The notes: a model not told the origin generated them from the letters alone. Shown: positions 1 to 63,344, counted from the stretch's first letter. The stretch: 64,000 nt of DNA from an uncultured Gemmatimonadaceae bacterium (GCA_963829055.1 CAWHHI010000010.1:32001-96000), one strand, 5' to 3'. Made by a program: numbers and translations.

Positions 1-2505
1 CGGCGTGCTGCTTGGGGCCGAGCGCTTCCTGTCCGAGATCCGGGTCACGGCGAGTCTCCGGCATCCGAACCTCCTGCCGCTGTTCGACTCCGGAGAAGCG
101 GGTGGGCTGCTGTACTACGTCATGCCGCTCATCGATGGATCGACGCTCCGCGCGCGACTCCAGCGTGAGCGGCAGCTGCCCGTGGACGAGGCCGTACGCA
201 TCGTGCGCGTGATCGCAGGCGCGCTCGACTATGCGCATCGGCAGGGCGTCGTACACCGCGACCTCAAGCCGGAGAACATCCTGCTGCAGGATGATCAGCC
301 GCTCGTCGCGGACTTCGGGATCTCACTCGCCGTGACGCGGGCCGCGAGCTCGCAGCGGACAACCGCCGGCATTTCGTTAGGCACGCCGAAGTACATGAGT
401 CCGGAGCAGGCCGCCGGCGCCTCCGATGTGGACGGCCGGAGTGACATCTACTCGCTGGCCTGCGTGCTCTACGAGTTGCTGGCCGGCGAGCCGCCGTTCA
501 CCGGCGACACCGTTCAAGCGGTGATCGCCAGAGTGCTCGCCGAAGCACCGGCCAGCGTACGGACGCTTCGTCCGGGCGTTCCTGCTCACCTCGATGCGGC
601 CCTCACGCGCGCGTTGGCCAAGCTCCCGGCAGACCGGTACGCGACTGCCCGTGAGTTCGGCGATGCGCTCGTCCTCGCGTCGACGGCGGCCTCCGCGGAC
701 GTGCAGGCGACTGCCGCACCGTGGCGCAGTCCGGCCCGCCTGGCACTCGTGGCAGTCGCGACCGTCGCTGTCCTGAGCTGCTGTCTGGCTGGCGACACGC
801 GCGCCCGCCGGCGACGTGTCACAGTTCGTCGAACGAGGCCTGATCGATCAGTCGATAAATAGCGCCGTCACGATCACGCCAGACGGTCGCGCGCTCGCGT
901 ACACCGGACAGGCGGGATCCCGAGGTCCGCTCATCGTGCGGCCGTTGTCCCAGCGCCCGGAGCGCGCGCTGCCCGGCACCGAGCGCGCGATCCTGCCGTT
1001 CGTTTCGCCAGACGGCAGGCGGCTCGCCTTCGTCTCGAGCGACGACAAGCTCGGGTCGGTATCGATCGAGGACGCGTCGGACGCCGACGGCGCCGCCGGC
1101 CGGTTGCTACGCCGTGTCTTCCGAGCGACGGAGCCGTGGCGGTATGGCAACGGCGCCTGGGTCGGGGATAGCCTCATCGTAACCGAATGGGACTCTACCG
1201 GGCTATCGACCGGCCTACCCGCGGAAGGGCCGCGGCGTCGGCTCACGCGGGTGGATCGTGCACGGGGCGAAGTGAAGCATGCCGCTCCCCTCGTGATTCC
1301 GGGCGCGCGGGCCGTGGTGTTCACCGTTAGGCATCGCGGTGGCCCTGGCGTTGTCAGCGGACCTCTCGCGATCGCCAAGCTCGATCCCGGAGCCGCCACG
1401 ATATCGCCGCACGCGTTGCTCGGTGTGACGGCTCGTCGCGCCATCGCGGTCGTGGATGGCTGGCTGCTCTTCATCACGACGGACGGCAAAGCCATCCAGG
1501 CCGTTCGGTTCGACCCCGAGCGCCAGCGAATCTCCGGGAGCCCGATCCTGGTGCTCGAGGATGCACTGGGGAACCTCGAATCGGCAGCGCTCGCCGACAA
1601 CGGCACGCTGCTGTACGTGCGCCGGCCACGGACCAACAGCGTGGTGTTCATCGATCAGCGAGGAGCGGTGCGCCCGCTGTTCGAGAGTACCCGTGGATCG
1701 TTCATGTACCCACGGGTGTCACCGGACGGCAAGCGGTTCGCAGTACAGATGACGTCGGCCGAGGACGACCAATCGAATGTTCTGGTCTATGACATCGCGT
1801 CGCGAGCTCCTACGCCGCTCACGAGCACCGGTATGGCGCTCCATCCGACGTGGACGCCAGACGGACGCCGGATCGTTTTCATGTTACGTGGCACCCGCGA
1901 GCTCGCGTGGCAGCCGGTTGACGGCCAGGGCGCGGCCGAAAAGATCCCGCTGACCGGGGGCTCATTCGCGCCAATGGTGTCGCCCGACGGCCACTCCATT
2001 GTCTTTCAGCGCGGTCGTCAGAGCGCGATCGATGCGAGCATCTCGGTCTGTCCCCGTCGTCGGAGGGATCGCGCCGCGCCCGGTGCTCCAGGATCCTGCC
2101 AACAGCTACGAGGCCGCCGTATCGCCTAACGGGCGCTGGCTGGCGTATACGTCGAACGTATCGGGGCGCGCCGAGGTCTACGTGCGAGCGTTCCCGGGCC
2201 CCGGGCTCGCCGTGCAGGTCTCCGACAGCGGCGGAAACGAAGCAGCATGGTCGCCCGATGGCCAGAACATCTACTACCGTGCCAAGCGCGGGTTCATGGA
2301 GGTGGCAGTGACGACGCCGGCGCTTCACATCACGTCGCAGCGCCGGCTGTTCAAGGACACGTACAGCGGCAGCATGCAGCATCGGAATTATGATGTCGCG
2401 CCCGACGGATCGGGATTTTTCATGATCTCGCAGGAAAACCCCGAGGCCGTCGTCACGCTCAATTGGGTGACGGCGTTGCGGACGCAGCTGCGGGGCGCGC
2501 GTTAG
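1..2505 (+). CDS. Hanks-type Ser/Thr protein kinase with TM segment and C-terminal TolB/PD40-like beta-propeller; 5' end outside window, about 2 frameshifts
   Basis: ORF 5..862 has HRDLKPEN, DFG and GTPKYMSPE. ORFs 816..2129 and 1999..2505 continue with repeated SPDG/WSPDG propeller motifs. Frame changes near 780-820 and about 2040. Confidence 0.85.
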
Positions 2506-2507
2506 GC

Positions 2508-5471
2508 GTGTTTCGCGAGATTCCCTGGGCAGCACTGGCGCTGCTGCTCGCGGCCCGCGTGGCGATCGCACAGACGGGCACGCTCGTCGGCCGGGTGACG
2601 AATGCACTCACCGGGGCCGCCGGTGACCACGGCGGAGGTGACGGTCACCGGAACCCCGTTGACAGCGCGGGTAGACGCGGACGGGCGATTCCGCCTGCCT
2701 AACGTCCCGATCACCGCCCACGAGGCACGCGCACGTGGGTTGGGCTACCAGCCGAGCCACCGTCACGTTCTCGCTCACGGCCGACGCGACCGCAGCCGTC
2801 GCGATCCCGATGACCGCCAGCACGATCGAGCTGGATGCCGTCATGGTCACCGGCGCCGTGGGCGACACGCGTCGACGAGCGGTCGGTCATTCGGTCGCGG
2901 TCGTGAACGGGAGGGAAATCGTCGGCCGATCCGCCGTCGCGAACCTCACGGAAGTCCTCCAGGCCAAGGTCCCGGGACTCACTGTCGCGCCGACGTCCGG
3001 CACCGTCGGCACGGCAGCGAGCTACCGACTGCGAGGCGCGGGGTCGCTCGGCGCCTCGAACACGCCGACGATCTATGTGGATGGCGTGCGAGTGAGCGCG
3101 CGCAGCCAGGGCAACTATGACGTCTTCGGGCAATCGACGACGGCGCTCGATGCCATCAGCCCAGCGGACATCGAGTCGATCGAGGTCATCAAGGGACCGT
3201 CGGCGTCCACGCTCTACGGGGCCGAAGCGGCGGCGGGCGTGATTCAGATCTTCACGAGGAAAGGCCGACCGGGACGAACCCGATGGGACGCTCGTGTCGA
3301 GACCGGGCGGTCCGACTGGGACGAGCGCTCGCGGCCGGAGAACTTCGCGGTGGTGACGGCCGCGCGCCGCGACAGTGTCGCGGACTACCCCGGCTTCCAG
3401 GGAAAGGCGTTAGGCGATCTGGTTTCATTCCGGCCCATGTCGGACGGCCGGGCGCTTCGCGGCGCCGACCTGTCCAAGCTCGTGCTCTCGGCGAGCGGCG
3501 GGGCCGAGCGATACACCTTCTTCGTATCCGCGGCCCGAACAAGGGAAGAGGGTGTGTATCTCAACAACTACTCCAACCTCACGTCGGCTCGGGCGAATGT
3601 CACGCTCGTCCCGACGAACACGCTCAGCTTCACCACGAACGTCTCGCTCAGCCGCACGCATCTCCGGCTGCCACTGAGCGACAACGCCGGTCCGTATGGC
3701 CTGATGGCCAGCTCGTACCTCGCGGTACCGGGGAAGCTGTACCGGACGTCAGGCGAGCAGAATTACTCAGCTGATCAACCCGGAACAGGCCGCGGCGTAC
3801 GACAATCAAACACGGGCCGACCGATACACCATCGGCGCGAGTGCTGACTACACGCCGTACTCCTGGCTCAGGAATGCGGTCCGTGTAGGACTGGACGCGA
3901 ACGTCGGACAAGCGGATCTGTACTTTCCGCCAACCGTGTCGCCCGCGTACGTCGCGCGCGTGAGCCTCGGTCTCGACAATTCGAAGGGTGTCATTGCGCA
4001 GGGGCGGCCACTCACGCACGATATCACGGTGAGCTACGACGGGACCGCGACGCGCCGCTGGTCCGAGCGGCTCGTGTCGACGACATCGTTAGGCATGCAG
4101 TACCTCGCGACCACGTTCCGGCGCACCGATGCGTTCGGGGTCGATTTCGGCAGTGGCGACCTGCGTTCGATCACGTCCGCCGCGGTGAGAACCGGCAGCG
4201 ACTCGTTGTCCGAGCAGAAATCCGTCGGGTTCTACGGGCAGGAGCAACTGTCGCTCGACGATCGGCTGTTCGTCACGCTGGCCGCACGGGTGGACAACAA
4301 CTCCGCGTTCGGCCCGACGTTGCACCGGGTGGTCTATCCGAAGGCGTCGATCTCGTACGTGATGTCGGACGAGCCGTACTTCAAGGTGCCTGGAATCAGC
4401 GCACTGCGATTGCGCGCGGCGTGGGGGCAGGCGGGCAACTCACCGGGTCCGTTCGATGCCACCCGTTCTTACGTCTCATCGGTCGTCACGACGAGCAGCG
4501 GTTCGACGTCCGCGCTGCGGTACGCATCGGCTGGCAATCCCGACCTTCGTCCGGAGCGCGGCTCCGAGATCGAGCTCGGCTTCGAGAGCGCATTCCTCGG
4601 CGGACGCGCATCGCTGGACGCCAGCTACTACCAGAAGACCACCCACGACGCGCTCATCCCGGTCCCTGTCGCTGCATCCACCGGCTTCGTCGGGGACCAG
4701 CTCACGAACCTGGGCGAGATCTCCAACAGGGGAATCGAGCTCCTGCTGAGAGGCACTCCCGTGCAGCACAGGCGGCTGACGATCGACGCGTCCATTTCGC
4801 TGGTGACCAATCACAACGAGCTGGTCGCGTTCGGATACGACCGCGGGCCGCTGATCTTCGGCTTCAACGCACTCTCGCAGCGCCATCAGGAGGGGTTTCC
4901 GCTCGGCGGTTTCTGGGCGCAGGTGCCGCAGTACAATCCGGACGGAACGCTCGTGGTCGTCGATGGCCGCCCGGTACCCGACACGGCCAGTGCGTACGTG
5001 GGGTCGTCGGTGCCGACGCGCGAGATGTCTTTCTCCACCGGCATCCTGCTGTTCGGCCGTCTGCGCGTCTTCGGGCTCGCCGACTACAAGGGTGGGCACT
5101 ACCAGTTCGACGTCACGGACTGGCGGCGTGACGTTGCCGGCGTCTCGTGGGAGACGGTGAATCCCGCCGCGGATCCGGACGACGTCCTGGTGCGTCAGTC
5201 CGGGAATCTCACGGCGCTGCATATCCAGAAAGCGGATTTCGTCAAATGGCGCGACCTGTCGATCAGCTATGCGATAGCAACACGCGCCGTACACCGGGTC
5301 GCTCGATCGGCGACGATCACGGTCGCAGGGCACAATCTCACGACGTGGACCCGATATCGCGGCGCAGACCCGGAGGTCAACTACAGTGGACCAACGCGGT
5401 TCAACCGCGATGATCTGTGGACCGCGCCGCAGACGCGCCGCTACTCCGCCGCCGTGGCTCTCTCCTTCTGA
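2508..5471 (+). CDS. SusC/RagA-like TonB-dependent outer membrane receptor (frameshifted)
   Basis: GTG at 2508 with signal peptide, carboxypeptidase-regulatory-like N-domain, plug motif DIESIEVIKGPSASTLYGAEAAAGVIQIFT, barrel motifs NPDLRPE and GADPE, C-terminal Phe. Spread over ORFs 2463..2702, 2602.., 2735..3847 and 3936..5471. Confidence 0.85.
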
Positions 5472-5473
5472 CG

Positions 5474-6781
5474 ATGACATCGATCATTCCACGCGTCACG
5501 GCCGCGAGGGTGCAGGTGGCGAAAACGATGCGGCACGCCGCCGTCGCCTCCTTCATCGCGTTAGGCGCCGGCGGATGCGATGGACTGTTGAAGGTGAACA
5601 ACCCCGCATCCTTGCAGGAAGGACAGCTCGATGATCCCGTGCTCGAGCCGTTCATCATCAACGGCGTGATCGGCGAGTTCCAGTTCGCCTACACGAACTA
5701 CGCGTTCTTCTCCGGCGTTCTTGCCGATGAGGGGTTCCTGGATCACATCAACGTGAACCTCCGCGAGTTCGCGCTCCACAACTTCAACGACATCAACGCC
5801 ACGAACGAGTCGGTGTATGGGAGTCTCCAGCAGGCCAGACAGGCCGCGGACAATGCCGTTGAGCGCGTGAAGAAGATGCTCGGAACCAGGCCGGACGTGA
5901 ATCTCAGCGTCGCCCGCGCGCTGATTTACGGCGGCTATTCATATGTGCTGCTTGGCGAGGGGTTCTGCGAAGCGCCCGTCAATCTCAGCGCTCCGCTCCC
6001 GTCCACAGAGCTCCTCACGAGAGCCATCGCCCACTTCGATGAAGGCATCGCTGCGGCCACCGCGGCGACGACGCCCGCGAACGCGGTGGCGGCGCAGGAT
6101 CTCATTTCGCTGGCACGGGTTGGTGCGGCGCGCGCGTCGCTCAAGAAGGGCGACCTGGAGAAGGCCCGCACGTACGCCCTGGCGGTGCCCGACGGCTACG
6201 AGCGGTTGGCCTACTACTCCGCGAACTCCGCCCGTGAGAACAATGCGATCCAGATAGCCGTACGACAGGCCCAGCCCTGGCTCGGCATGCAGGCGAGATT
6301 TCGGAGCCTCGACGATGCGCGGGTGCCGCAACCGCCGACGCCGCGTGTGTCGCTCGCCGGAAACTCGATCTTTCCGCCCCAGAAGCCGTCGATGTACGGG
6401 GGTTGGACCGGAAGACTGCCCGGCCAGCCGATCGACGTCGCCAGCAGCGTCCGATTCGCCAGCGGTCTGGAAGCTCGGTACATCGTGGCGGAAGCCGATG
6501 GTCCCGGCGCTGCCATGCTGACCTTCGTCAACGGACGCCGCGCCTCGGCCGGCAAGCCGCCCGTCAACCTCGACGGCGCCGCCCTGGTGACGGAGTTCCG
6601 GATGCAGCGGGCCTTCGACTTCTACCTGACCGGGCAGCGGCTGGGCGACCTGCGTCGTTATGCCGACGCAGGAACCGATCTTTTCCCGACCGGGAAGTAC
6701 CCGACGCTGCGCGACTCGTACGGGGCCATGCACTGCTTCATCGTCCCGCTCAGCGAGAAGTCGAGTAACCCGAACTACTAG
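5474..6781 (+). CDS. SusD/RagB-like lipoprotein
   Basis: ATG 2 nt after the SusC stop; lipobox GAGGC; QRAFDFYLTGQRLGDLRR and terminal PLSEKSSNPNY typical of SusD C-termini. Confidence 0.85.
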   Translation: MTSIIPRVTAARVQVAKTMRHAAVASFIALGAGGCDGLLKVNNPASLQEGQLDDPVLEPFIINGVIGEFQFAYTNYAFFSGVLADEGFLDHINVNLREFALHNFNDINATNESVYGSLQQARQAADNAVERVKKMLGTRPDVNLSVARALIYGGYSYVLLGEGFCEAPVNLSAPLPSTELLTRAIAHFDEGIAAATAATTPANAVAAQDLISLARVGAARASLKKGDLEKARTYALAVPDGYERLAYYSANSARENNAIQIAVRQAQPWLGMQARFRSLDDARVPQPPTPRVSLAGNSIFPPQKPSMYGGWTGRLPGQPIDVASSVRFASGLEARYIVAEADGPGAAMLTFVNGRRASAGKPPVNLDGAALVTEFRMQRAFDFYLTGQRLGDLRRYADAGTDLFPTGKYPTLRDSYGAMHCFIVPLSEKSSNPNY

Positions 6782-6895: not shown

Positions 6896-9747
6896 ATGTC
6901 GTTTTGCCGTGGACTGATGATCATGAGCGTCGTCCTCGTGCCGTTAGGTACGACCCTCCCACCACCACTTCTCGCGCAAGGCGGTACAGGTACGATCCGT
7001 GGGCTCGTCAGTCGATCCACCGCCGATTCGCCCGTTCCCGGTGCCCAGGTGTTCATCGTCGGGGGAAAGCTTGGTGCCGTTACCGGGAATGACGGTCGGT
7101 ACACGTTCTCCGAGGTGCCGCCCGGAACACACACGGTCCGCGTTCGTGCGCTCGGATTCCAGCCGATCGAGAAGACCGTCGAGGTCACCGCTGGTCAGGC
7201 AGCTACCGCGGACTTCGTGGTGACGTCGGCGCCGATCGCGCTCGACGAAGTCGTCGTCACCGGCACCGCCGGCTCGGCGCGCAAGCGCGAGGTCGGCAAC
7301 TCGATCAGTCAGGTCAAGCTGTCGGAGACTCCCGAGGTCACGAGCAACGTCTCGAATCTCATCTCCGGACGCATGGCTGGCGTGAGCGTATCCGGCGGCA
7401 CCGGGAACGCGGGCGCGGGATCCTCGATCCGTCTGCGCGGCACGACCAGCGTCGCGCTCTCGAACCAGCCGCTGATCTACGTCGACGGCGTCCGCACGCG
7501 GAGCGATGAGTATCCCCGCAACGGCATCTTCACCGGAACGACGCAGCGCGGCGCCAACGCGTACGGCAGTCCGCTCAACGACATCAATCCCGAAGACATC
7601 GAGCGCATCGAGATCGTGAAGGGCGCGGCCGCGGCCACGCTGTTCGGTACCGACGCCGCCGCGGGTGTCATCCAGATCTTCACGAAGCGCGGCGCCAACG
7701 GCAGCGCCAAATGGAATACGCAGTTCAACACCGGCATCAGCAAGCTGCAGCAGTTCGGTACGGACTCGGTCCCGCTGCTGTTCATGGACCCGTTCGTCCG
7801 GAACGGCGTGCGCTACGGCGGGTCGGCGCAGGTGTCGGGCGGTGCTGGAGACGCGCTGCGCTACCTCGTGTCCGGCGGCGCCGACCTGACGCAAGGCGTG
7901 CTGCCTAACGACGACGAGAAGAAGTATCAGCTCCGCACCAACATGGACTTCCTGCCGGTCAAGAAGATCGCCATGGGCGTGAGTGTGGGATACACGAACA
8001 ACCTCGTTTCGCAGACGCCCGCCGGGAACAACGCGCAGGGGATCACGCTCAACGCGTTCCGCCGCGACCGGAATTACTTCGCGAACGCAAACCCGGACAC
8101 GATCCGCCAGGTGCTCCAGCAGCAGCTCAAGAGCAACATCGACCGCTTGATCATGGGCACGACCATCACCGCGACGCCCATCGCGAACTTCTCCAGCCGG
8201 TTCACGATCGGATACGACCGCGCCGCGGTCGACAACCGCAACGTGCGCCCCTACGGCTTCCCCGCCGTACCGCTCGGCGTCATCCAGGATCAGCGGTGGG
8301 CGAACAACACGCTGAGCACCGACTGGGTGAACAGCTACGACTTCAATGTGAGGCAGGATCTCAAGATCACGGCGTCCGCGGGCACGCAGTACGTGAACTC
8401 GCTCGTGAGCGATGTGGTGGGCTACAGCGAGAACTTCGCGACGCCAGCCGATCCGACCGTCGCCAGCGGCTCGCTCAAGAACGCGGATGAGAATCGCCAG
8501 CGCGTCATCACCGGCGGCGCGTTCGGGCAGGCGCTGGTCGGGTTCAAGGATCGATACTTCCTGACCGTCGGCGCGCGCATCGACGGCAACAGCGCATTCG
8601 GCGAGGACTTCGGATTCCAGACCTACCCCAAAGTGAGCGGGTCGTGGGTGATCAGCGAGGAGCCGTTCTGGCTGTCGTCGTTAGGTAGCCTCAAGCTCCG
8701 CGCCGCGTACGGCGCGGCGGGCCGAGCGCCGGGCGCCTTCGCCGCGGTGCAGACGTGGACCGCGGTTGGATGGGGCGGCCAACCCGCCGTTCGTCCGAAC
8801 AACTTCGGTAACGCTGACCTCGGCCCGGAGCGGACGACCGAGCTCGAGCTCGGCTTCGACCACAGCGTATTCGACGGCCGCTTGAACATCGACTTCACGT
8901 ACTTCGACGCGACCACCACCGACGCGCTGTTCAACGTCCGATCCATCCCGACGAACGGCTTCCTCAACAACGTGCTCAAGAACGTCGGCGAGATGAGCAA
9001 GTCGGGAATCGAAGTCGCCGTCACCGGCACCGTGTGGGACAGCCCGAGACTCGGCATCAACGCAGGCCTGAACCTGAGCACGAACCACAGCAAGGTCGTG
9101 AGCCTCGGCGGCGCGCCGGCGTTCTCGGTCGGCAACTTCGGCTGGGTGATCGAAGGAGAGCCGGCGCCAGTGCTCCGCGGAAAGGTGATCCGCAATCCTG
9201 ACGCGGTCGGCGTCGCGCCCGACACGTCGTCGAACTACGCGTTCGGACCGAGCCAACCGACGCGCATCATCGGCGGTTCACTGAGCATCCGTACGTGGCG
9301 GAACATCACCATCTCGGCGCGCGGCGAGCACCAGGCGGGCGCGTACATCAACGAAGACGCGTCGTACCAGGCGATCTCGCGATCGGTGCTCTGGCCGACG
9401 TGCTTCGACGCCTACGAGAAGCAGGCGGCCAAGCAAGGCGCTGACCGTCAGGGAGACACTCATGTGCGTTCCCGCGAACGCGCGGCAGGACATGTTCATC
9501 TTCAAGGCCGACTTCTTCAAAGTCCGCGACATTACGCTCACGGTTCCGCTCGGCCACGCGATTCCGAGATCAACGAGCAGCTCGATCGTATTCTCGGCGC
9601 AGAACATTTTCAGGAAGAACTACGGCATGCCAATGTTCGATCCCGGAGATGTCCGGGAACGATGGCTTCAATCCGACCGTGCGATATATCTCGGAGCATA
9701 TCCCGGCGCCCGCAGTGTTCCTGACTTCTCTTCGCGTCTCGTTCTGA
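6896..9747 (+). CDS. Second SusC/RagA-like TonB-dependent receptor (frameshifts near 9430 and 9645)
   Basis: GGAGG RBS before ATG 6896; plug motif NDINPEDIERIEIVKGAAAATLFG; NADLGPERT; the C-terminus continues as ADFFKVRDITL, then ...FLTSLRVSF-stop at 9747. Confidence 0.85.
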
Positions 9748-9758: not shown

Positions 9759-11012
9759 ATGACCATGACGAAATTCGAGACGATCCGTCGTACGGCGTTC
9801 ACCCTGGGCTCCGCGGCGCTGATCGCGGCCCTGTCGGCGTGCGAGCTCAAGGTCAGCAATCCCGGACCCGTTCAGGCCGACGCGCTCGACGACCCAAAGG
9901 CTCTGACTTCTGTCGTGAACGGCGCTGGACGCGACCTCGCGGAAGCAATCAACTGGACCGCCTACACCGGCGGCGCGGTGGCGCTCGAGATCTTCCCGGG
10001 TGGATCCACCGGCTCGTTCGGTATCACGCCCCGCCAGCAACAGGGCAAGCTCGTCGACGATGACGACGACACGCACTGGAACTTCTCACAGCGCGCTCGT
10101 TGGACCGCGGAGGATGCGGTGGCGCGCGGCAAGACCGTACTCGGCGCGGCAGCGGCGAACAACGCGACCGTCGCACAGGCGCTGGTGTGGGCCGGCTTCG
10201 CGAATCGCCATCTCGGAGAGAACTTCTGCGAGGGTGTGATCAACGGCGGCGCTCCGCAGCCGTACACGGTCTATCTCGAGCGGGCCGAGGCGAACTTCAC
10301 GGAGGCGATCACCGTCGCGGGTGCCGCGAACAACGCGAACCTCGTGTCGGCTGCGACGGCTGGCCGCGCGTCGGTGCGACTGCTCCGCAACAACCTGACG
10401 GGAGCGGCGGCGGATGCGGCGGCGATCCTGAGCCCATTCACGTATCGCATGCCGTACTTCTCGACGGACCTCGATCAGTACAACCGCATCTACTGGGCGT
10501 CCGCGAATCAGCCGTACCGCGCGCATACGGTGTGGAACACGTTCTACGACAGCTATCGCAAGAGCACGCGTGACCCGCGCGTTCCGTTCGACAGCAGTGC
10601 GACGCAGTTGGTGGGCGACGCGGCGGTCGGGAATCTCGGACGCGTGCGCTGGTACTTCCAGACGAAATACCCGGCGCAGTCCTCACCGATCAACCTGGCG
10701 AGCGGTTGGGAGATGCGTCTCATCGAGGCCGAGGCGAAGCTGGTGGCAGGCGACATTCCGGGGGCGATGACGTCGATGAACCTGCATCGCGTCGCGCTGG
10801 GCCTAACGCCGTGGACAGCGGCGAACGCCACGGACGCATGGACGGCACTCAAGCGCGAGCGTGGTATCGAGCTCTGGTTGGAAAGCCGGCGGCTTGGTGA
10901 CTTCCGTCGCTGGGCAGCGCTCTCGCGGCCGGGAACGTCCGACGACATGACGGGGCGCGACCTCTGTTTCGCCACGCCGCTCTCGGAGAAGCAGACGAAC
11001 CCGAACTACTAG
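9759..11012 (+). CDS. Second SusD/RagB-like lipoprotein
   Basis: Signal peptide with lipobox LSAC; ERGIELWLESRRLGDFRR; terminal PLSEKQTNPNY; clearly paralogous to 5474..6781 (LGE(G/N)FCE motif). Confidence 0.88.
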   Translation: MTMTKFETIRRTAFTLGSAALIAALSACELKVSNPGPVQADALDDPKALTSVVNGAGRDLAEAINWTAYTGGAVALEIFPGGSTGSFGITPRQQQGKLVDDDDDTHWNFSQRARWTAEDAVARGKTVLGAAAANNATVAQALVWAGFANRHLGENFCEGVINGGAPQPYTVYLERAEANFTEAITVAGAANNANLVSAATAGRASVRLLRNNLTGAAADAAAILSPFTYRMPYFSTDLDQYNRIYWASANQPYRAHTVWNTFYDSYRKSTRDPRVPFDSSATQLVGDAAVGNLGRVRWYFQTKYPAQSSPINLASGWEMRLIEAEAKLVAGDIPGAMTSMNLHRVALGLTPWTAANATDAWTALKRERGIELWLESRRLGDFRRWAALSRPGTSDDMTGRDLCFATPLSEKQTNPNY

Positions 11013-13795: not shown

Positions 13796-14127
13796 TCGCG
13801 GCCGCCCACATGCCTCATCTCATTTCAGGCCATCGATCAGAGTTCCCGAGGCATTGGGCCGACAGCCGATGCCGACACCAACAGCAACATCGCCGGCAGT
13901 AACAAAGTCAGCAGTGCTCTCGACCCAAAGTCCCGGAACGTGAACAGCACGATCACGAGGCCGACCGCGCGGACCCGACAGATTGCGTTGGACACCAGGG
14001 AATTCAGCCGGGTCGGATGCGGGCTTCGTGCCAATGCCGCGTTATGCAGCCGAAATGATTCGTCGCTAGTGAGCCGCCTCGGGCGATGTCCATGCTCGAG
14101 CTACCGCCGTTAGGCATGTGCGAGGAC

Positions 14128-49672: not shown

Positions 49673-49879
49673 GACTCCTCCACGTTCGACGAGTCCTTGA
49701 CGCGCTCCCGCCTCCCTCGGCAGGCTCTGGCGCGCAGCGGAGGCTCCGTCGATCCGTCTACAATAGCAGCCGCGGGGGCGAACGGGAAGATCAGCTGGGT
49801 GAGCTCGCCTCGGCCGCAGACCGGTCAATGGCGACCACACGCCCTCCAACAGCTCGGACGATGAGCATGCCCATCGTGC

Positions 49880-52800: not shown

Positions 52801-52979
52801 CCTTCCGCCAACTCACGCGGCAGGACCTTGAGGACGACGGTCCTGCCTAACGCTGGCTCGTGCGCCACGAAGACGCGGGACATGCCACCGCCGCCGAGCT
52901 CACGCTCGATGGTGTAGGCCGTGCCCAACGCCGATTGGAGGTGGGCGCCGAAGTCGGATTGCATTGGCGGGCCGGTCAC
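49880..52979 (-). CDS. Hanks-type Ser/Thr kinase with TM, TolB_N-like and TPR domains; frameshift near 50670
   Basis: LGGGGMSRV, HRDIKPDN, DFGIGK, GTPAYMAPEQ; TSTSLPALRAYLDG, AVELDSSF TPR region. Confidence 0.9.
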
Positions 52980-53252: not shown

Positions 53253-53303
53253 TGCTCGCCTCCAGTGCCCATCGCGTGACGCCGGCGTTAGGCCGGCGTT
53301 GGT

Positions 53304-54204
53304 TCACGATTTCGATTTCGCAGCCTTCTGCTTCGCCAACTCCGACCGGAACTCCTGCTCCTTCTGCGCGATGAACGCCGCACAGCCTTTCGGATCGACG
53401 AACGCGTCAGCGGAGCCCGCCTGCTTTCGCGCGTACTTCGCCTCCATGTCGAAGTACGCGCCGTGCGCGCCGAGGAAGAGATCGCACGGCAGCGACTCGA
53501 GCACGCGAAACGTTCGCTCGTAGTCCTGCGCGATCGTCGGATACGTTCGCGTTGTCGACGAGCTTGTAGCCCGGGTTGACGTTAGGGCTTCCGATGATCA
53601 CGGCGTTGTAGGTCTTGCCACCATCGCGCACCGTCAGCGTCCACGTCGTACACCCCTTCGTGTGACCGGGAGTGAGATGTGCCACCAGCACGACGCCGCC
53701 GAGCTTCACCTCGTCGCCGTCGTGCAGGACGCGGTCGACTCGCACGGGCGTATACAGTGTGGTCGCGTCGCCGGCATAGTGGAAATCGGTCTTGCCCCCG
53801 GATTCGACCACGGGAACGTCGGCATCCATCACCATGTAGCTCGCGCCCGTGAGCGCCTTCACCTTCGCGCTGCCGGCGTCGTGGTCCCAGTGCGCGTGGC
53901 TGATCAGCAGGATCTTCACATCGCTGAACTTGAAGCCGAGCTGCTCGATGCTCGCCTTGATGAGCGGCACGTTCGCGTCGAGGTCGCTGTTGATCAGGAT
54001 GTGGCCCTGCGGCGTCGTGATCAGATAGTTCGCCAGGCCCTTGCTGCCGACGTAGTAGAGATTGTCGGCGATGCGGAATGGCGGAAACGGCTCGGTCCAG
54101 GCGGGCGGACTGCCCTGCGACGATGCCCTGCTGGCTGTGATGGCAATCAGGATCGACGCGACAGCCGCGATGGCCCGCGCAGATGTTTTGGCCAGGGTTT
54201 TCAT
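53304..54204 (-). CDS. bla: Subclass B3 metallo-beta-lactamase; frameshift near 53545
   Basis: Signal peptide; PFPPFRIADNLYYVG, SHAHWDH, TPGHTKGCTTW, LPCDLFLGAH. Confidence 0.88.
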
Positions 54205-54261
54205 GGTACCGCGAATCTTCATGCCGTCCACAGGTGAGTCAACGGGAAGCGCCAGGTGCGC

Positions 54262-56606
54262 CTAACGCACCCCCATCTCCCGATCGATGCGGTCCGCGAG
54301 CCGCGCAAAGCGCGCATCGGAGCGCAACGGATCCAGTCCGGGATCGCTTCGCACCGCGCGGTGAGGGAACTTCCAGTTGCTGCGCTCCAGCCAGACGAAG
54401 GCGCTGTCGGACTGGCGTAGGGCCACGTACGCACGTCCGATGTTGAACGGCTCGATAGGCTGGACCTTCGCTCGCCGCAAGCTCTCCAGCGCCGCCTCGA
54501 TCTCGCCACGCAGTGCCTGGACGAAGGCGAGGTCCGCCAGAAAATCCGGACGTTCCGGTCCGAGCTCGACCGCCTTCCGCTGTGCGCTCACTGCATCGTC
54601 GAGCATTCCCTTCTGCGCGTAGGCAAGGCCGAGACGGTTGTACCCCCTCGCCCAGCTCGGGCTGATCTCCAGCGCCCTTCGCTGCTGGGCGATCGCGCAG
54701 TCATAGTTGCGAGCGAGATAACACTGCCAACCGTAGTTGCCGGTGACGACAATCGCGAACGGGTCGAGCTCATCCGCGCGCCGACTTTCTTCGAGTGCTT
54801 CCGGCAACCTACCCAGCCCTGCCAGCAGCAGGGAGTACCAGCTGTGCGTGGTCGCGTTGCCAGGATTCAATTGAACGGCCCGGCGAAACTCCCGCTCGGC
54901 GCCTGGCCAGTTTCGTTGCCATTGGAGTGAAACCGCAAACGATGTATGGGCATCGGCGGACTTGTCGTTGATCGCGAGCGCCCGTTCCGCCGCCCATTTG
55001 TGGCGCGAGTTGATCTCCTCCTCAGGGAGGCTCGAGATATTGAGCTGGTAGGCCGTCATGTACGCGTCCGCGAGTCCCGCGTAGGCATCCGCGAAGCCGG
55101 AGTCGCGCTCGATCGCCCGGCTGTAGTAGTCAACGGCGCGCTCGTGCCCGTCCTTGGTTCTTGTGTTCCAGAGATATCGGCCACGACGGTACAGCTCGTA
55201 CGCCTCCGCGTTTGTCGTCCCCTGGGTCACGAGCGCAGTTCGCCCCCGCTCCCCTAGCTCTATCTCGAGAGCCCGGACGACTTCCCGCGCGATCTTCTCC
55301 TGCACTCCGATGATGTCCGGCAGGTCGCTGTCGAATGTCTGCGCCCAGAGATGAGCGTCCGCGCGCGCATCTGATCAGTTGTGCGGTAATCCGGAATCGC
55401 AGGCCATTCTGCCGCACGCTCCCCTCGAGGATATGCGCGACCTTGAGCTCACGTGCGATCTCCCGTAGCGGCTCGTTGCTTCCTTTGTAGTGCATCGCCG
55501 AGGTACGCGAGATCACCTTGAGCTCGGGTAGGGCCGAGAGGCCTGTGATGATCTCCTCGGTGAGACCATCGGTGAAGTAATCGCGGTCGGCGTCCGCAGT
55601 CAGATTGACGAAAGGGAGCACGGCAATCGAGCGCTCGGGGTGACCATCGAGGGGCCAAGAACCTCCAGAGCGCCGCCACCACAAGAACAGCCGCCAGGAG
55701 CGCGAGCAGACCCGCCCGCCGAACGAGCCTCCTCGGTTCACCACCGGCTCTGCGTTCGGCGGTCGCCGCCGGCGACTCAGGCGTCGGCGACGCGGGAACC
55801 GATTCAGGCGATGGGGCAGGCGATACGGAAGGCGATTCCGTCGGAGCGGACACGCTCACCGCGGCAGCGGGTTCCCGTCGCAACCGTTCGGCAAGGGCGG
55901 CAATCTCGGGATTCCCCGCTATCCCAAACTCCTCCTGAAGGAGTCGCTGGTGAATCGCCGCATGCTGGAGTGCCGCAGCCGGGTTGCCACTTGCGTCCAG
56001 CGCCTGCATGAGGCGGAGGGCAACACGCGAGTCGTACAGATCCTGTGCTGCCCTCACCTTCCACCACTCGGCCGCCCTCGAAAAGTCCCGCGCCGCCTCT
56101 GCCTCCTGAGCGAGAGCTTCCAACGCCTTTGCATAGCCGGCCGCAAGCCGTTCGCGCTCCCGGCTCACCCACTGCTCGAACTCCGGCGCGTCGCTGAGAA
56201 AGAATCCGTCGAGAAAGGGACCTCTGTAGAGAGCTACCGCTCGCGCGTGATCCGCACCCGCCAGCGCGGTGTCGAACTCGGTCGCATCCACCCGGACCAC
56301 GTCGGCATTCAGCCGCAGGTCATCCCCCTCCGATAGCACGGCGGCTTCGCCCAGCGACGTTCGCAACACGTAAGTCGAAACCTTGAGCAGGTTCCGCCCC
56401 CGCTCGGCGTCGCTCTCAGGCCAGAGGTAGGCGATCAGCTTGTCGCGACTGAGCCGAGCCAATGGGGCCGTGGCGATCAGCGCGAGCAGCGCGAGGCGAT
56501 GGCGCTGCGCAACTCGGCCCGTAAGCGCGGGCCCGCCCTCTCGTTCGATCGATGGGCTACCGAAGAGCCTGAGATGGAAGGTCGGAGGCGAGTCACGCGA
56601 GTTCAT
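54262..56606 (-). CDS. BTAD/SARP-like DNA-binding protein with TM, TolB_N-like and TPR domains; frameshifted
   Basis: LRLFG, SRDKLIAYLWPE, LYRGPFLDGF, SIAVLPFVNL...DGLTEEII, VISRTSAM, AYELYRRGR, TPRs. Confidence 0.85.
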
Positions 56607-58111: not shown

Positions 58112-58118
58112 GGCAGGC

Positions 58119-59061
58119 CTACTCGCTGCGAAGTGTCACCGCCGGGTCCACCGCAGCGGCACGCGGAACCTGAACGCCGTCACTGGAAACGTGATTCCAA
58201 CTTCGAACGGCAGCCCCGGGATGAACGTCGTGACGGTGCGCAGCACGAGCCAGACACCTGTGAGCGCCGCGATACCCAGTAGCGCGCTCTCCGTCAGGAG
58301 CTGTCGGATGAGCCGAGTTCGCGCCGCACCTAACGACAGGCGGATGGCGATCTCGTGCCGTCGCGCCGTCGCGAGTCCCGTCAGGAGCGCGCTCACGTTC
58401 GTGCAGGTGACAAGCAGAACGAGCAGGCCCAGCAGACCGACCGAGACCGTCATCAGCTAACACGGAGAAGTAGTTCTCTGTTACGAACGTCACTCTCGCC
58501 GCGAGCCTCTGCCGCTCGGCGCCATCGCCCACCGTCAGTGCCGCCGACGCATCCGTCCAGCCGGCGACGGCGGAGAAGTGAGTCGTCAGCTTTCGATGTT
58601 CGAGAAACTCCTCTTCGGAGAACGTGCGATACCCGCGCTCCGGCCCGCCGTACGTTCGGCTGCCGCGAATGCGAACGAGATCGTCCTCGAGCGTGACGCC
58701 GGGCGGCGGCTGCTTCGCGTATGCGTACACGTAGGTGAACAGCAGCGTGCTTATCGTAAGACCGGCGACGAGCACGACGAGCATCGTCAGCGTCGTTCCC
58801 GGCTTTCGCGCGAAGTGGCGGAGCGCGAATCGCGAGTCGGCGGTCAACGCGTCCACCCAACCGGCACCTCGTGCGTCGCGCGCTTCTTCCTGCAGGTAGG
58901 CGACGTTGCCGAACTCGCGCAGCGCCGCGTACCTGGCGTCCTTCGGGGAAAGGCCCCGTGCGACGAGCCGCGCAGTCGAGTGGGGGTTCGGCCTGCATTT
59001 CCCGCTCGAGCCGGCGACGCAGCAGGAGGGACCGAACCCGTTGGCGTACGCGGTTGAGCAT
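58119..59061 (-). pseudogene. Internally deleted ADOP permease remnant
   Basis: [73 protein letters not shown] and [10 protein letters not shown] all packed into under 1 kb, versus about 2.5 kb for the full copy at 24655..27170. Confidence 0.8.
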
Positions 59062-59240
59062 CAGGTCACCCGGAGGATGGCCGTGTCGGCGAGAAGGCGT
59101 CGGCTGCGGGTCGGTCGACTGACCCTCCACCAAGTGATCGGGTGGTCAGGTGCAGTATGGATACGCCACCACTAGACAGTCAAGTGGTAGCTACCGGCTG
59201 CGGTGATCAATGACCGGTCGTCACGAACACCTCCAGCACG

Positions 59241-59654
59241 TCACTGCTCCTCGATGCGAATGGCTTGCGCTCCGGTCCGCAGCAGCGCGGTCCCGATCTC
59301 CGCAAGGCGACTGGTGTCGCCGGCGATCGTCGCGAAATGGTTTCCGGCCAGCGGACCCGCGTTGCAGGCGAAACGCGTTAGGCCGTAGGGGATGAGAATC
59401 TCCGTCTCGCTCACACCGCCGGGGTACAACAACAGCTCACCCGCCTTCGGCTCGGTCTTCGCGTTCTCGGCGGTTCGCGCCACTTGCAGGTCGCCGAGCG
59501 GAAGCCACGCGGCTTCTCCGCTCCAGCGCGCGTGAATGATCTGGCCATCGAGCGGCAGGAGACGGCGGACCGTCTCGCACGTCAATGGTGCCGCGTCTTC
59601 CTCCCAGAAGGCGTCGAACCGCTGTGCGCCAATCGTGATCGTCAGTCGTCGCAT
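59241..59654 (-). CDS. DUF3830 family (cyclophilin-like) protein
   Basis: APLTC, IHARWSGEA, LYPGGVSETEILIPYG, LAGNHFATI. Confidence 0.85.
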   Translation of the reverse strand: MRRLTITIGAQRFDAFWEEDAAPLTCETVRRLLPLDGQIIHARWSGEAAWLPLGDLQVARTAENAKTEPKAGELLLYPGGVSETEILIPYGLTRFACNAGPLAGNHFATIAGDTSRLAEIGTALLRTGAQAIRIEEQ

Positions 59655-59878
59655 GAATTCTCCGGTTGGAGACGAAGTTAGACGCCGACCGTGTCGTAGA
59701 ACAGCCGTGGGTGACACATACTCGCGCGTTCACCTTCGAGCTTGACGTCCCGTATCTACCGACGTTAGGCGGATCCGGCCGACTGCATCCATTACTCGCC
59801 TCGCGCTCGCGAGATTCTGACCGTCGCCGGACATCGCCTCCGCTTGCGCTCGTCAACACGCGCGCGGTACGCTACCGA

Positions 59879-61773
59879 ATGCCTATGCCAGCTGTCCTTC
59901 GCTCCCTGCAACGCCTTCTGTTCCGCATATCCCGCTCGGCTCTCGTACTAGCGGTCGTCACGACGCATCCTCGCGCGCACGGTGATGGCGCAAGGCAGCG
60001 CCGAGTACGAGCGCCGCGAGCTGAAGATTCCGATGCGCGACGGCGTCACACTGTTCGCTGTCGCGCTCATCCCCAAGGGGGCGACCGCTCCGCTCCCCAT
60101 CCTCCTCATCCGCACTCCGTTCAGTGCCGCTCGCGAGTTCGGGAGCACCACGTTGCCGGTGTCGCTCCGCGAGCTCGGAGAGGACGGATACATCTTCGTC
60201 TCGGAAGACATCCGCGGACGGTTCGGATCGGGAGGGACCTTCGTCTCCCTGAGACCTCAACGTGACCCGCGCGACGCGCGCGGGGTGGACGAGTCGACCG
60301 ACGCCTGGGACACCGTCGACTGGCTCGTCCGCGAGCTGCCTAACAACAGCGGCAAGGTCGGCGTCCTCGGTATCTCGTATCGCGGCTGGCTCGCCGCCCT
60401 CGCGGGCGTCGGGGCACACCCCGCGATCAAGGCGATCTCGCCGCAGGGGCTCGTTGCCGACGTATGGCTCGGCGACGATTTCTTTCATCAGGGGGCATTC
60501 CGCCAGGCCCAGGGCGTTGCGTACGCGGCCTACATCGAGGGGACCAACGGGCTCTCGATCCCCGACTACGACCAGTACGACTTCTACCGCAAGCTCCCCA
60601 CGCTCGACACGCTGGCCAGGGCGACCGGCGTCGCCGACCTCCCGTCATGGGTGGGCTTTCGCACGCACCCGAGCTACGACGCCTACTGGGAGGCGCGCGC
60701 GCTCCAGAACGTGTACCGAACGCCCGAGGTCCCGACGCTCGTCGTCGGCGGCTGGTGGGATGAGGAAGACCTCCTCGGTCCGCAACTCATCTATCGCACG
60801 CTGGAACGCGCGGACACCGGCCGGCGCAACTTCCTCGTGATGGGACCGTGGTCGCACGGCAGCTGGTCACGCCCCGGCGGCGATTCGCTCGGTCCCGTTA
60901 GGCTCGGCGGGAAGTCGGCGGACTACTTCCGAGCCAGCATCCAGCGTCCATGGTTCGCCCACTACCTGCACGGCAAGGGCGACGGCCGCTTCCCCGAGGC
61001 GCAGGTCTTCGAGACCGGGGCGAACGAGTGGCGCCGCTTCGACGCCTGGCCGCCGAAGAATGCCATTCCGCGCCGACTCTACCTGCGCGGAGAACGGGCG
61101 CCTCGCCTTCGATCCGCCGGCAGCGTCCACCACGTCGGGCAGCGTTAGGCCTGCTCGCGACCCGATGCACGCCAACGACTTCGACGCGTTCGTCTCCGAC
61201 CCCGCCCATCCCGTCCCGTACATCCCCCGTCCCGACAACGGCGACGGGTGGAGCACGTGGCTGGTCCAGGACCAGCGCTTCGTCGACAACCGCCCCGACG
61301 TCCTCACGTGGACGTCGGAGCCGCTCAGCGAGGATCTCACGATCGCCGGTGACGTCGTCGCGCACCTCTTCGCGTCCACCACCGGCACCGACGCCGACTG
61401 GGTCGTGAAGCTCATCGACGTCTATCCCGACAGCGTCGCCGATCGCCCTCGGCTGGGCGGCTATGAGCTCATCGTCAACGCCGACATCTTGCGGGGTCGC
61501 TACTGGAAGGGCTTCGCGCGCGCGACGCCGATCCCGGCGAACACGGTAACACCATTCACGGTGGACCTGCACGGGCAGCTGTACCGCTTCCGGAAGGGGC
61601 ATCGGCTCATGGTGCAGGTGCAGAGCACGTGGTTTCCGCTCTACGATCGCAACCCGCAGCGCTTCGTGCCTAACGTTTTCTCCGCGAAGCCCGACGACTT
61701 CCAGACGCAGACGCACCGCGTCTGGCATACGGCGACCCAGCCCTCGCACCTCAGCATCGCCGTGTTGCCCTGA
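59879..61773 (+). CDS. CocE/NonD family hydrolase (alpha-amino acid ester hydrolase-like); frameshifts near 59975 and 61095
   Basis: IPMRDGVTL, RTPF, DIRGRFGSGG, GISYRG, GDDFFHQGAF, GPWSHG, QVQSTWFPLYDRNPQ. Confidence 0.9.
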
Positions 61774-61807: not shown

Positions 61808-62361
61808 TCACCAGCCCGACGTACCCGGGCCACCCTTCCACGGCCCGACGATCTCGCTCGTCACCCATCCGCCGTAGAACCCGCCATCCTGCGCGCGCAC
61901 GCGCTCCCCATCGACGAAGCACGCGACACGACCCGGATACACGGAGAAGCACGCTCCGATCGCCTCGTACGGCGCACGCGGGCGGGATAATACCACCCCG
62001 CACGTGTCGCGATCTGGTCGCGGGCAACGACGGACAGATAGCGCGCACCACCCTTCCACTCGCACTGGGAGCCGAGTGCGTCGGAATCCTCGACGAGCGA
62101 GTCTCGAAGGACTTCGGCCAACGGAAGGTAGAACGTCGGCGGGCTCGCGGTCTCGAGTAGCCGCAGGGCGTGGCGGGTGCGTATGATCTCGACGCCCGCA
62201 AAGCTCACGACGACTTCACGACTGTCCTGCAGCAGCTTCGGCGGTCGAGGGTAGTCCCACACCGACTCCTGGCCTGTAACGTTAGGCATGGCGAACAATG
62301 GTCTGTCCTCGCCGGTATAGCGCCAGAGTGCACGGGCGCGAGCATGCTCATCGCTGGACAC
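61808..62361 (-). CDS. DUF427 family protein; frameshift near 61985
   Basis: QESVWDYPRPP, LETASPPTFY, CEWKGGARY, FYGGWVT.EIVGPWKGGPGT.GW. Confidence 0.88.
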
Positions 62362-62364
62362 CGT

Positions 62365-63325
62365 TCAGTTCCGCCGTCCGTACTGGTCGTACCAGTCCAG
62401 CACTCGGCGAGCACGCAGCGTGACCCATCGATTCGGCTCACCGACGGTGCCGGCCAGCTCCTCGTGAAGGGTGTCGCGGTGTCGCACGTCGAGCAGCCAG
62501 CGGCCATCGCCCTGGCGCCGTTCGACGCACGATCGCGACCGCCTCCTCGACATGGCTGTCGGGCCTACACGCCAGCCGCGCGCAGATAGTCCAGCGCACG
62601 CAGCACGTCGTAGTGCCAGAGCGGCGGAAACGCGAACTGCGTCCACTCGCATTGATGATCTCGCCGGTCGACAACCGTCGGAGCAGACGCCGCTCGAGGA
62701 GATATTCCTCGCCGCGCTTGCGCGCGTCCGTCACCGCCGGCGCGGCGCCGAACGCCTGCTCGAACGCGAGCAGCCCTTCGAGCACACAGATCGTCGTGTG
62801 GAACGACGAGCGCACCGAGCCGCGCTCGGCCTCGCAGTTCCAGCCGCCGTCCGCGAGTTGTTCACTCAGCAGGCGATCGACGAGCCGATCGCTCCGCTCG
62901 CCGAAGTACGCGCCTAACGCGACGACTCGGCCGTTGATGCACGGCTCGACCTCGCCCTCGAAGAACGGCGAGTCTCCGAACTCGGGTCCCCAGGTGACGT
63001 GGTCGCGAACGAGATCGATCGCCGCTCGCACGCGCGCGCTCGCGGGGTCGACACCCAGGTCGCGCAGGAACACGCAGCGTGTACATGTTCGACCACCAGA
63101 ACGGCGTGGCGATGCCGTCGCCCCACTGGCCGTCGGGGCGCTGCTGGTCGAGCAGCCGCGGGCCCCAACCCTCGTCGCGACCCGCGACCGCTCGGCCGCG
63201 ACGATCTCGGCGGGCGTGTCCGTGAGATCGCGCATGACCTGCCAGCGGATCGACGGGTCGGCGTCGAGGAGCCAGTCGATTACGGGGTCGGTCGAGGATC
63301 GAGGGTACTCGCTAGTCGGGCTCAA
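62365..63325 (-). CDS. Prenyltransferase/squalene-cyclase-like alpha-alpha toroid hypothetical protein; frameshifted
   Basis: WLLDADPSIRWQVMRDL, EVEPCING, QLADGGWNCE, SSFHTTICVLEGL, GEPNRWVTLRARRVL. Confidence 0.8.
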
Positions 63326-63344
63326 ATCTCGTTAGGTCTTGGGT

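Follow-up and report, generated by a model that had tools for sequence, protein, structure and literature searches.

Few hyper-abundant genome words are known to us, namely the DNA uptake sequences (DUS) of Neisseriaceae, the uptake signal sequences (USS) of Pasteurellaceae and the cyanobacterial HIP1 (GCGATCGC), and their origin is debated between selection, drive and repair bias. Molecular drive has been proposed for both USS and DUS, and the minor pilin ComP is the receptor for DUS. Other chromosomal words such as Chi and KOPS are strand-skewed, and Chi is read in one orientation. Gemmatimonadota have been little studied genetically. Part of PMC13756078 describes HIP1 as enhancing transformation in two cyanobacteria. 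Here we analyzed an octamer, CGTTAGGC (the word, counted on both strands), in a stretch of 64,000 nucleotides from an uncultured Gemmatimonadaceae bacterium. This stretch, the window, is C10:32001-96000 of the source genome G000, which has 7,784,024 bases in 20 contigs and an assembly completeness of 85.9%. Genomes with many copies are called word-rich and those with few word-poor. We found that CGTTAGGC is real, maintained and orientation-free, and that a single copy suffices for a few hundred bases.

The word resembles DUS and USS in being short and non-palindromic, in occurring about once per kb on both strands and largely in genes, in its lineage specificity, and in having a strict core, looser ends and a spacing more even than random. 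It differs from them in that ComP_DUS was not found in the word-rich genomes searched, inverted terminator pairs are absent, phages carry copies, density varies 60-fold within a genus, and the phylum is another one, Gemmatimonadota. HIP1 is likewise an octamer that is many-fold over-represented, conserved among related genomes and unclear in its primary function, but it is a palindrome read by two methylases, whereas CGTTAGGC is asymmetric and no methylase tracks it. Chi, KOPS and AIMS are also over-represented octamer-sized words of chromosomes; in contrast to their replication-linked skew, CGTTAGGC has none, and RecC was found in none of five genomes. Finally, the word shares its letters with the integron attC/attI core site GTTRRRY, as C + GTTAGGC ends the attC sites of arrays in G021, G000, G167 and the viral collection. 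Unlike attC sites, nearly all genomic copies of the word are solitary, with no inverse core or hairpin, and they lie in ordinary genes in both orientations.

An earlier note on this stretch had listed 51 exact copies by eye, and a pattern search recovered all of them to the base, 28 on the + strand and 23 on the - strand. Its 18 additional copies of the core GTTAGG with one terminal mismatch were also found, bringing the cores to 69 compared with 6.9 in shuffles, and its sole exception, a TTAGG lacking the preceding G, lies at 6845-6850. In 100 dinucleotide-preserving shuffles of the window, whose G+C content is 64.7-68.0% in 4-kb windows, the word occurred 0.96 times on average and at most four times. 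The expectation of 2-3 copies and the enrichment of about 20-fold given earlier were therefore too generous to chance; enrichment in the window is about 50-fold. In G000 as a whole there are 5,004 copies (2,547 + and 2,457 -), about one per 1.5 kb, against Markov expectations of 131, 102 and 258 for orders 1-3, or 69 (order 2) and 60 (order 3) when CGTTAGGC is masked. It is the 14th commonest 8-mer of the genome and the only one among the top 30 that contains A or T. The author of the earlier note was aware of no description of the motif, and none was found in the literature, although preprint supplements could not be searched.

The contribution of coding sequence was assessed on our own crude gene calls (5,710 calls covering 52-75% of each contig). 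Shuffles that preserve protein and codon usage (n = 20) gave 125.8 +/- 12.2 copies with a maximum of 155, whereas the 5,320 called genes actually hold 2,978 copies; the over-representation asserted earlier thus holds under this null as well as under the Markov models. In the called genes the word is read as NCG-TTA-GGC (1,232 copies) or NNC-GTT-AGG-C (392) and, on the opposite strand, as NNG-CCT-AAC-G (821) or NGC-CTA-ACG (553). A TAG or TAA stop codon is supplied by 311 copies, and 1,695 copies fall outside the gene calls, in proportion to uncalled DNA. Among Leu codons, TTA accounts for 45% where the context is NCG-Leu-GGC and for 0.8% in all other contexts; among Pro codons, CCT accounts for 80% where the context is NNG-Pro-AAC-G and for 6.9% otherwise. 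Within genes the positions are uniform, the counts per gene are near Poisson, and a codon-adaptation proxy had no effect on density. These results demonstrate that CGTTAGGC works at the DNA level and forces rare codons. The flanks show no conservation (0.13 bit or less at any position), and codon periodicity continues through the word. Three other candidates were rejected: a peptide motif, given four peptide readings and non-coding copies; a translational role of the rare TTA codon, because the other strand and other frames carry CGTTAGGC as often; and a dispersed repeat of the REP or MITE type, no sequence or hairpin being conserved beyond the core.

With CGTTAGGC masked, one-letter variants are enriched at both end positions (TGTTAGGC, 435 copies; CGTTAGGT, 827; CGTTAGGG, 428). 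A single internal variant, CGTTATGC, is enriched (583 copies), and changes at positions 2, 5 and 7 give no excess (0.4-1.15 of expectation). This defines GTTAGG as the core, flanked preferentially by C at either end. In regions of distinct local GC skew, the G-rich strand holds 1,203 of 2,340 words (51.4%, p = 0.18), compared with 61% of called genes, and the two strands are balanced in 50-kb bins of G000. The absence of replichore skew rules out a Chi- or KOPS-like motif, in line with the earlier note, whose description of a non-palindromic, strand-balanced motif is borne out. Contig C16 alone shows a mild strand shift across a skew switch (59% vs 47%, p = 0.005). Its GC skew flips sign near 540 kb, where a tyrosine-recombinase-like match is located (C16:541422-541577), and this is likely the terminus region.

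The main new result is that the words interfere with one another over about 200 bp, regardless of orientation. Gaps shorter than 100 bp account for 1.4% of the 4,984 gaps in G000, compared with 6.3% expected, and gaps shorter than 200 bp for 4.3%, compared with 12.3% expected. The density of pairs in successive 50-bp bins is 0.19, 0.25, 0.39, 0.52, 0.73 and 0.81 of uniform and reaches about 1 beyond 300-600 bp. Long gaps have no sharp cut-off (2.9% exceed 5 kb, 3.8% expected), and no periodic spacing was found up to 4 kb. Close pairs are equally frequent in the same and in opposite orientation; only 40 pairs are closer than 60 bp, one of them a hairpin, and no inverted pairs act as terminators. 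The same dependence is seen at sites where a synonymous choice would create the word. The share of Leu-Gly sites eligible in this way that carry it grows with the distance to another word, from 6% at 0-50 bp and 10% at 50-100 bp to 25-30% at 100-200 bp, 43-44% at 200-400 bp and 55-59% at 400-2,000 bp. At longer distances their occupancy is lower (34% at 2-4 kb, 9% past 4 kb), a reflection of word-poor blocks. At eligible Pro-Asn sites, occupancy rises from 41% to 85-89% with distance from another word. By eye, the rise follows approximately 1 - exp(-d/200 bp). Short gaps are also scarce in samples of G014, G065, G165, G123 and G001, which together have 5 gaps shorter than 100 bp (28.6 expected) and 24 shorter than 300 bp (80 expected). 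Such interference argues against site-by-site mutation or repair bias, for which no dependence is expected, whereas one tag copy serving a few hundred bases does predict that neighbors depend on each other.

Conservation of word positions was analyzed by aligning G000 with G001 (148,258 columns, 77.5% identity). The two genomes have 55 words in common, out of 99 in G001 and 116 in G000, against a background of 18.5% identical 8-letter windows. Non-shared partners are often CGTTAGGT, CGTCAGGC or CGCTCGGC, the last of which has the usual Leu codon CTC where CGTTAGGC has TTA. As judged from these alignments, CGTTAGGC is maintained within the genus. When G000 was compared with word-rich samples from other genera (G014, G065, G165, G123 and G090), 14 of 141 and 14 of 112 words coincided, and the background for sharing between genera is 10-18%. 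Sharing at the background level indicates that each lineage filled up separately, although paralogues may be among the sequences aligned. Scars of cassette insertion were rejected, because the partner sequences in relatives are mostly substitution variants of equal length, with few gapped.

Neighbors of RecA place the group among the metagenome-assembled genomes of Gemmatimonadales/Gemmatimonadaceae. All seven genomes of the genus, G000 and the six others, are word-rich with 2,501-5,112 copies, and G014 of another genus has 6,360 copies in 5.1 Mb. According to our own tally, at least 1,000 copies are present in 24 of 151 family genomes, belonging to 13 genera (the family and phylum tallies take in the unpublished genomes G013, G051, G052, G150, G462 and G491, none of which serves as an example here). 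Below 1,000 copies the family forms a continuum in which many genomes are far under the reversed-word control, and counts range from fewer than 10 to 6,360. One genus is split 60-fold, with 3,896 copies in G066, 4,141 in G166 and 66 in G124. Within a phylum sample, no genome of the 46 from nine other families was above its own control, and in the sister family only G534 was (726 copies). None of 251 further genomes, drawn by the phylum of G167/G169 such that the taxon sampled is uncertain, was word-rich; the highest, G227, has 299 copies, approximately its control. In the genomes surveyed, hyper-abundance is thus patchy and nearly confined to Gemmatimonadaceae.

No substitute word was found in 40-100 kb samples of word-poor G007, G016, G010 and G018, where the best other words reach 0.24 per kb or less. 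A candidate alternative in G018 proved to be a heptamer repeated in tandem rather than scattered; tandem GTCAGAT/CAGATGT heptamers inflate some 8-mer counts in the first 20 kb of each of its contigs C1-C5 (L026-L030). One-strand runs in G065, G123, G165 and G090 were ruled out by the balanced strand counts in fetched DNA (25/20, 27/31, 27/23 and 11/18, respectively). Word-rich metagenome contigs span 55-73% G+C. Four of them (L378, L392, L385 and L340) have 55-60% G+C and match G000 weakly, with 30-52% amino acid identity in the main hits; the word may not be limited to close relatives.

The word is not an assembly artefact, since the six other, fragmented assemblies of the genus and four independent metagenomes hold the word or the sequence. 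Short-read contigs from four public metagenome runs of four studies cover window positions 40001-60000 with about 99% likeness, and near-identical DNA is present in 20 runs of 16 studies from rhizosphere, soil and sediment. The checks by which the earlier note could have failed (a codon-preserving null, the rest of the genome, related genomes and independent short-read assemblies) thus all turned out in its favor. Among the best-supported 40 of 793 read differences, none falls inside the 18 words of 40001-60000. Window genes for a TonB-dependent receptor, a MacB-type permease and a GMC oxidoreductase are seemingly split by frame changes (2735-3847/3936-5471, 24655-26151/26130-27164 and 27896-28681/28798-29955), and one letter at 41868 and at 48835/48836 is missing from the short-read contigs in all four runs. 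These frame changes and letter differences are probably indel errors of the G000 assembly and may explain its completeness of 85.9%. The word is missing from three terminal contig segments of G000, each 31-50 kb long, namely C6:5440-55037 (G+C 0.70), C6:591808-623330 (0.73) and C11:1-46789 (0.66). These blocks represent foreign islands, contamination or misjoins; their lack of CGTTAGGC and, in two of the three, a raised G+C are as expected of recently arrived DNA. All exact and core-only copies in the window are listed in Table 1.

Table 1 Copies of the word and of its core in the window
Feature	Position	Strand	Basis
CGTTAGGC copy	375..382	+	pattern search
CGTTAGGC copy	1325..1332	+	pattern search
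CGTTAGGC copy, gives TAA stop of ORF 816-2129	2124..2131	-	pattern search
CGTTAGGC copy, gives TAG stop of ORF 1999-2505	2500..2507	+	pattern search
CGTTAGGC copy	2697..2704	-	pattern search
CGTTAGGC copy	3408..3415	+	pattern search
CGTTAGGC copy	4087..4094	+	pattern search
CGTTAGGC copy	5559..5566	+	pattern search
CGTTAGGC copy	7903..7910	-	pattern search
CGTTAGGC copy	10801..10808	-	pattern search
CGTTAGGC copy	13249..13256	+	pattern search
CGTTAGGC copy	14108..14115	+	pattern search
CGTTAGGC copy	15765..15772	-	pattern search
CGTTAGGC copy	16388..16395	-	pattern search
CGTTAGGC copy	16856..16863	+	pattern search
CGTTAGGC copy	19536..19543	+	pattern search
CGTTAGGC copy	20026..20033	-	pattern search
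CGTTAGGC copy	20465..20472	-	pattern search
CGTTAGGC copy	21366..21373	+	pattern search
CGTTAGGC copy	23016..23023	-	pattern search
CGTTAGGC copy	23622..23629	-	pattern search
CGTTAGGC copy	24774..24781	+	pattern search
CGTTAGGC copy	25398..25405	+	pattern search
CGTTAGGC copy	29469..29476	-	pattern search
CGTTAGGC copy	30235..30242	-	pattern search
CGTTAGGC copy	31389..31396	-	pattern search
CGTTAGGC copy	31772..31779	+	pattern search
CGTTAGGC copy	39098..39105	+	pattern search
CGTTAGGC copy	40438..40445	+	pattern search
CGTTAGGC copy	41121..41128	+	pattern search
CGTTAGGC copy	41635..41642	+	pattern search
CGTTAGGC copy	41837..41844	+	pattern search
CGTTAGGC copy	42727..42734	+	pattern search
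CGTTAGGC copy; same-orientation word at matching place in G001 (L006, by offset)	47485..47492	-	
CGTTAGGC copy	48705..48712	+	pattern search
CGTTAGGC copy; same-orientation word at matching place in G014 (L004, by offset)	49294..49301	-	
CGTTAGGC copy	49878..49885	-	pattern search
CGTTAGGC copy	51141..51148	+	pattern search
CGTTAGGC copy	51510..51517	-	pattern search
CGTTAGGC copy	51948..51955	-	pattern search
CGTTAGGC copy	52356..52363	-	pattern search
CGTTAGGC copy	52845..52852	-	pattern search
CGTTAGGC copy	53286..53293	+	pattern search
CGTTAGGC copy	54260..54267	-	pattern search
CGTTAGGC copy	59376..59383	+	pattern search
CGTTAGGC copy	59763..59770	+	pattern search
CGTTAGGC copy	60896..60903	+	pattern search
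CGTTAGGC copy, gives TAG stop of ORF 59982-61148	61143..61150	+	pattern search
CGTTAGGC copy	61668..61675	-	pattern search
CGTTAGGC copy	62280..62287	+	pattern search
CGTTAGGC copy	62912..62919	-	pattern search
core-only GTTAGG (end letter differs)	6943..6948	+	
core-only GTTAGG	8680..8685	+	
core-only GTTAGG	13490..13495	-	
core-only GTTAGG	22266..22271	-	
core-only GTTAGG	22521..22526	-	
core-only GTTAGG	26129..26134	-	
core-only GTTAGG	27310..27315	+	
core-only GTTAGG	28121..28126	+	
core-only GTTAGG	28677..28682	-	
core-only GTTAGG	30764..30769	-	
core-only GTTAGG	35270..35275	-	
core-only GTTAGG	37614..37619	+	
core-only GTTAGG	37934..37939	-	
core-only GTTAGG	44419..44424	+	
core-only GTTAGG	53581..53586	+	
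core-only GTTAGG	58329..58334	-	
core-only GTTAGG	60339..60344	-	
core-only GTTAGG	63331..63336	+	

The end of an integron attC site is defined by the core site GTTRRRY, as set out in part of PMC3053210. The 3' end of the local attC sites (C + GTTAGGC) equals CGTTAGGC letter for letter, an identity that the earlier note had missed. In word-poor G021, contig C95 has 23 + copies and 1 - copy in 20 kb, where the word closes a conserved repeat on its 3' side. The form of attC sites, a GCCTAAC...GTTAGGC hairpin, is taken by 22 of 23 sites in this array (L158, G021:C95:1-20000), with lengths of 90-136 nt, and the cassettes are about 0.5-0.7 kb long. An array of G000 at C20 ~192-218 kb adjoins an integrase (C20:208011-208994) and has attC sites ending in CGTTAGGC, and G167 has an array of 26 such sites (C12:272009-284754). 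The viral collection contains 16 one-strand arrays of 30-67% G+C, with the inverse core upstream of 80 of 136 words. By definition, an attC site has RYYYAAC as its inverse core and forms an imperfect palindrome of 57-141 bp that ends in GTTRRRY. The inverse core GCCTAAC lies 35-150 nt upstream of 20 of 24 words in array L158, of 66 of 5,003 words in G000 and of none of the 51 in the window, indicating that the genomic words are not attC sites. Integrase matches over the cut-off are present in 88 of 151 family genomes and, by our own tally, in 14 of 24 word-rich and 74 of 127 other genomes, showing no correlation. In G004, G065, G099, G109, G117, G123 and G147, the integrase score is only at the level of the genome's own other tyrosine recombinases. 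We estimate that a given 8-mer would match on either strand by chance in about 3 of 100,000 cases. Since an 8-letter match is very unlikely by chance, we think that the link with attC is real, but that it does not run through integrase presence.

Three word-rich viral contigs were found, two of which were verified as phages. In all three the word occurs on either strand, with 1.05-1.25 copies per kb, and copies also lie within terminase, portal and head genes. L193 (IMGVR_UViG_3300037261_000237) encodes a terminase, portal, head protein, holin and repressor and has 19 words in 15.2 kb, five of them in the portal gene alone; its terminase has one distant hit only in the viral collection. L302 (IMGVR_UViG_3300003324_000477) encodes a terminase (E = 7.5e-172), portal, protease and head protein, through whose genes its 12 words in 11.4 kb are spread. 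The third, L311, has 22 words in 18.7 kb, and its phage marks are weak. One further phage of 46% G+C, a single element represented by L298/L305/L310/L318, has 7 words in 20 kb. Words in phages indicate that the force acts on phage genomes too, which fits a self marker or a bias acting within the cell.

Protein families were searched for a candidate that follows the word, and no family tested tracks CGTTAGGC. Vsr (PF03852) was detected in 3 of 31 genomes, all word-poor, and in none of the 8 word-rich ones. G000 has no match to the methylases PF01555, PF00145 and PF02384, which word-poor G124 and G007 match; PF00145 is also without a match in word-rich G057 and G066. A D12-class methylase (PF02086) is present in G000 (in two pieces), G066, G124 and G007 and not in G057, and a large Eco57I-type enzyme (PF07669) is present in all five of these genomes, in none of which RecC was found. 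A methylation- or repair-driven motif, which the earlier note had considered, is thus not favored, and no repair enzyme specific for an asymmetric 8-bp sequence is known to us.

Among the explanations weighed, an acquisition tag ranks first, followed by a nucleoid site, a self marker, a conversion bias and a recombinase site. Our best reading, which we hold tentatively and regard as possible rather than probable, is that CGTTAGGC is a double-strand self tag read by a putative protein, that is, an acquisition tag similar to DUS and USS. A sequence-specific reader protein would read the word as duplex DNA in either orientation. Point substitutions creating the word are fixed well above chance where the encoded protein allows it, as the codon analysis here shows, and one word serves a few hundred bases, such that a second word nearby gains little, as seen in the spacing. 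The reader may belong to a DNA-acquisition route, in which free DNA is taken up and recombined homologously, and word-bearing alleles would be passed on preferentially, which amounts to molecular drive. Lineages with an active route would fill up with CGTTAGGC, each at its own positions. In favor of this reading we count the DNA-level character and missing polarity of the word, positions that are kept within the genus but not between genera, the diminishing return of close neighbors, the large word-free blocks, the presence of uptake parts (ComEC, a secretin and a ComEA-type HHH_3 domain) and the parallel with HIP1. The spelling may have been taken from the integron cassette-site end that is common in the family, so that cassette DNA would be tagged too. 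A more specific form of the idea, a DNA-acquisition system built around integron cassette ends, appears doubtful to us; here the reader would bind the attC terminus as a duplex and harvest cassette and kin DNA from the soil, with the genomic copies as a by-product of this preference through molecular drive.

Several observations weigh against an acquisition tag. ComP_DUS (PF16732) was found in none of G000-G006 and G014, the 8 word-rich genomes among the 31 searched, and the sole match over the cut-off in these 31 is in word-poor G016. ComEC, a secretin and the ComEA-type HHH_3 domain are present in word-rich G000, G057 and G066 and equally in word-poor G124 and G007; the co-occurrence with ComE parts or methyltransferases that the earlier note proposed to look for is therefore no guide to the word. 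No reader protein was found among hand-picked families, and a literature search on uptake sequences gave no record of competence in Gemmatimonadota. The interference length of about 200 bp would be shorter than expected for kilobase uptake fragments. The 60-fold split within one genus and the crudeness of the gene calls also count against the tag, as does the host-like density of CGTTAGGC in at least two phages, except if these are long-resident prophages.

The strongest rival, which we consider unlikely, is that the word is a binding or nucleation site of a nucleoid-structuring protein that organizes about 200-400 bp, for example by wrapping or spreading, with selection spacing the sites. It is consistent with the freedom of orientation, with an interference scale near that of a large protein-DNA footprint, with the uniform distribution over genes and spacers without a gene-level pattern, and with the conservation of positions within the genus; a nucleoid role has also been argued for HIP1 in part of PMC5861425. 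However, no candidate protein was found, selection on each redundant site among 5,000 would be very weak, and the phage words, the 60-fold difference between sister genomes and the spelling of the attC end are left unaccounted for.

Rather improbable is a self marker, Chi-like in function but orientation-free, by which DNA escapes a nuclease or defence system of the host, such that resident DNA and successful phages both accumulate the word. The two phages with head and packaging genes, the foreign-looking blocks free of the word, and the lack of three major methylase families in G000, which would fit another means of self/foreign recognition, all point in this direction. On the other hand, Chi is skewed and read in one orientation, unlike the word, and RecC was found in none of the five genomes searched for it. 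Close neighbors are no more often opposite, so that redundancy is orientation-independent, long gaps are not sharply cut off, and the word-rich viral contigs number only three.

A functionless bias of repair or gene conversion, turning near-matches into the word in any DNA that replicates in these cells, is improbable in our judgement. The near saturation of synonymous opportunities (45-80%), the presence of the word in phages and its absence from seemingly new blocks, the continuous range of densities among genera (from about 200 to 6,360 copies) and the lack of enrichment of core variants at positions 2, 5 and 7 would all be compatible with it. But such a bias predicts Poisson spacing, and the occupancy of eligible sites falls about ten-fold beside another word; in addition, no Vsr was found in the 8 word-rich genomes searched and no methylase tested tracks the word.

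It is very unlikely that the words are secondary attachment sites at which an integrase or another tyrosine recombinase captures or moves cassettes or chromosomal segments. The identity of the eight letters with the attC 3' end in G021, G000, G167 and the arrays of the viral collection, and the frequency of integrases in the family, speak for this possibility, but integrase presence is uncorrelated with word richness, hardly any genomic word has the inverse core, insertion into genes would be harmful, and G000 has only about four tyrosine-recombinase genes. Chance, assembly artefact, a dispersed repeat or a peptide motif can be dismissed with near certainty: nothing of weight favors them, although the assembly seems to hold indel errors, and the shuffles and Markov models fall far below the count, other assemblies and independent metagenomes hold the word, no flanks are conserved, and there are several peptide readings.

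A case from a different phylum makes the origin of hyper-abundant words testable. The wide range of copy numbers in the family, together with the 60-fold split within a genus, suits phylogenetic profiling for a reader, and the interference length of about 200 bp is a measurable quantity that any mechanism must explain. The spelling shared with attC points to a link with cassette traffic, and the occurrence of the word in phages offers a further handle on the question. If the acquisition system built around integron cassette ends is real, it would tie natural transformation to integron cassette traffic in these bacteria, and a reader, if found, might provide a tool for DNA delivery into Gemmatimonadota.

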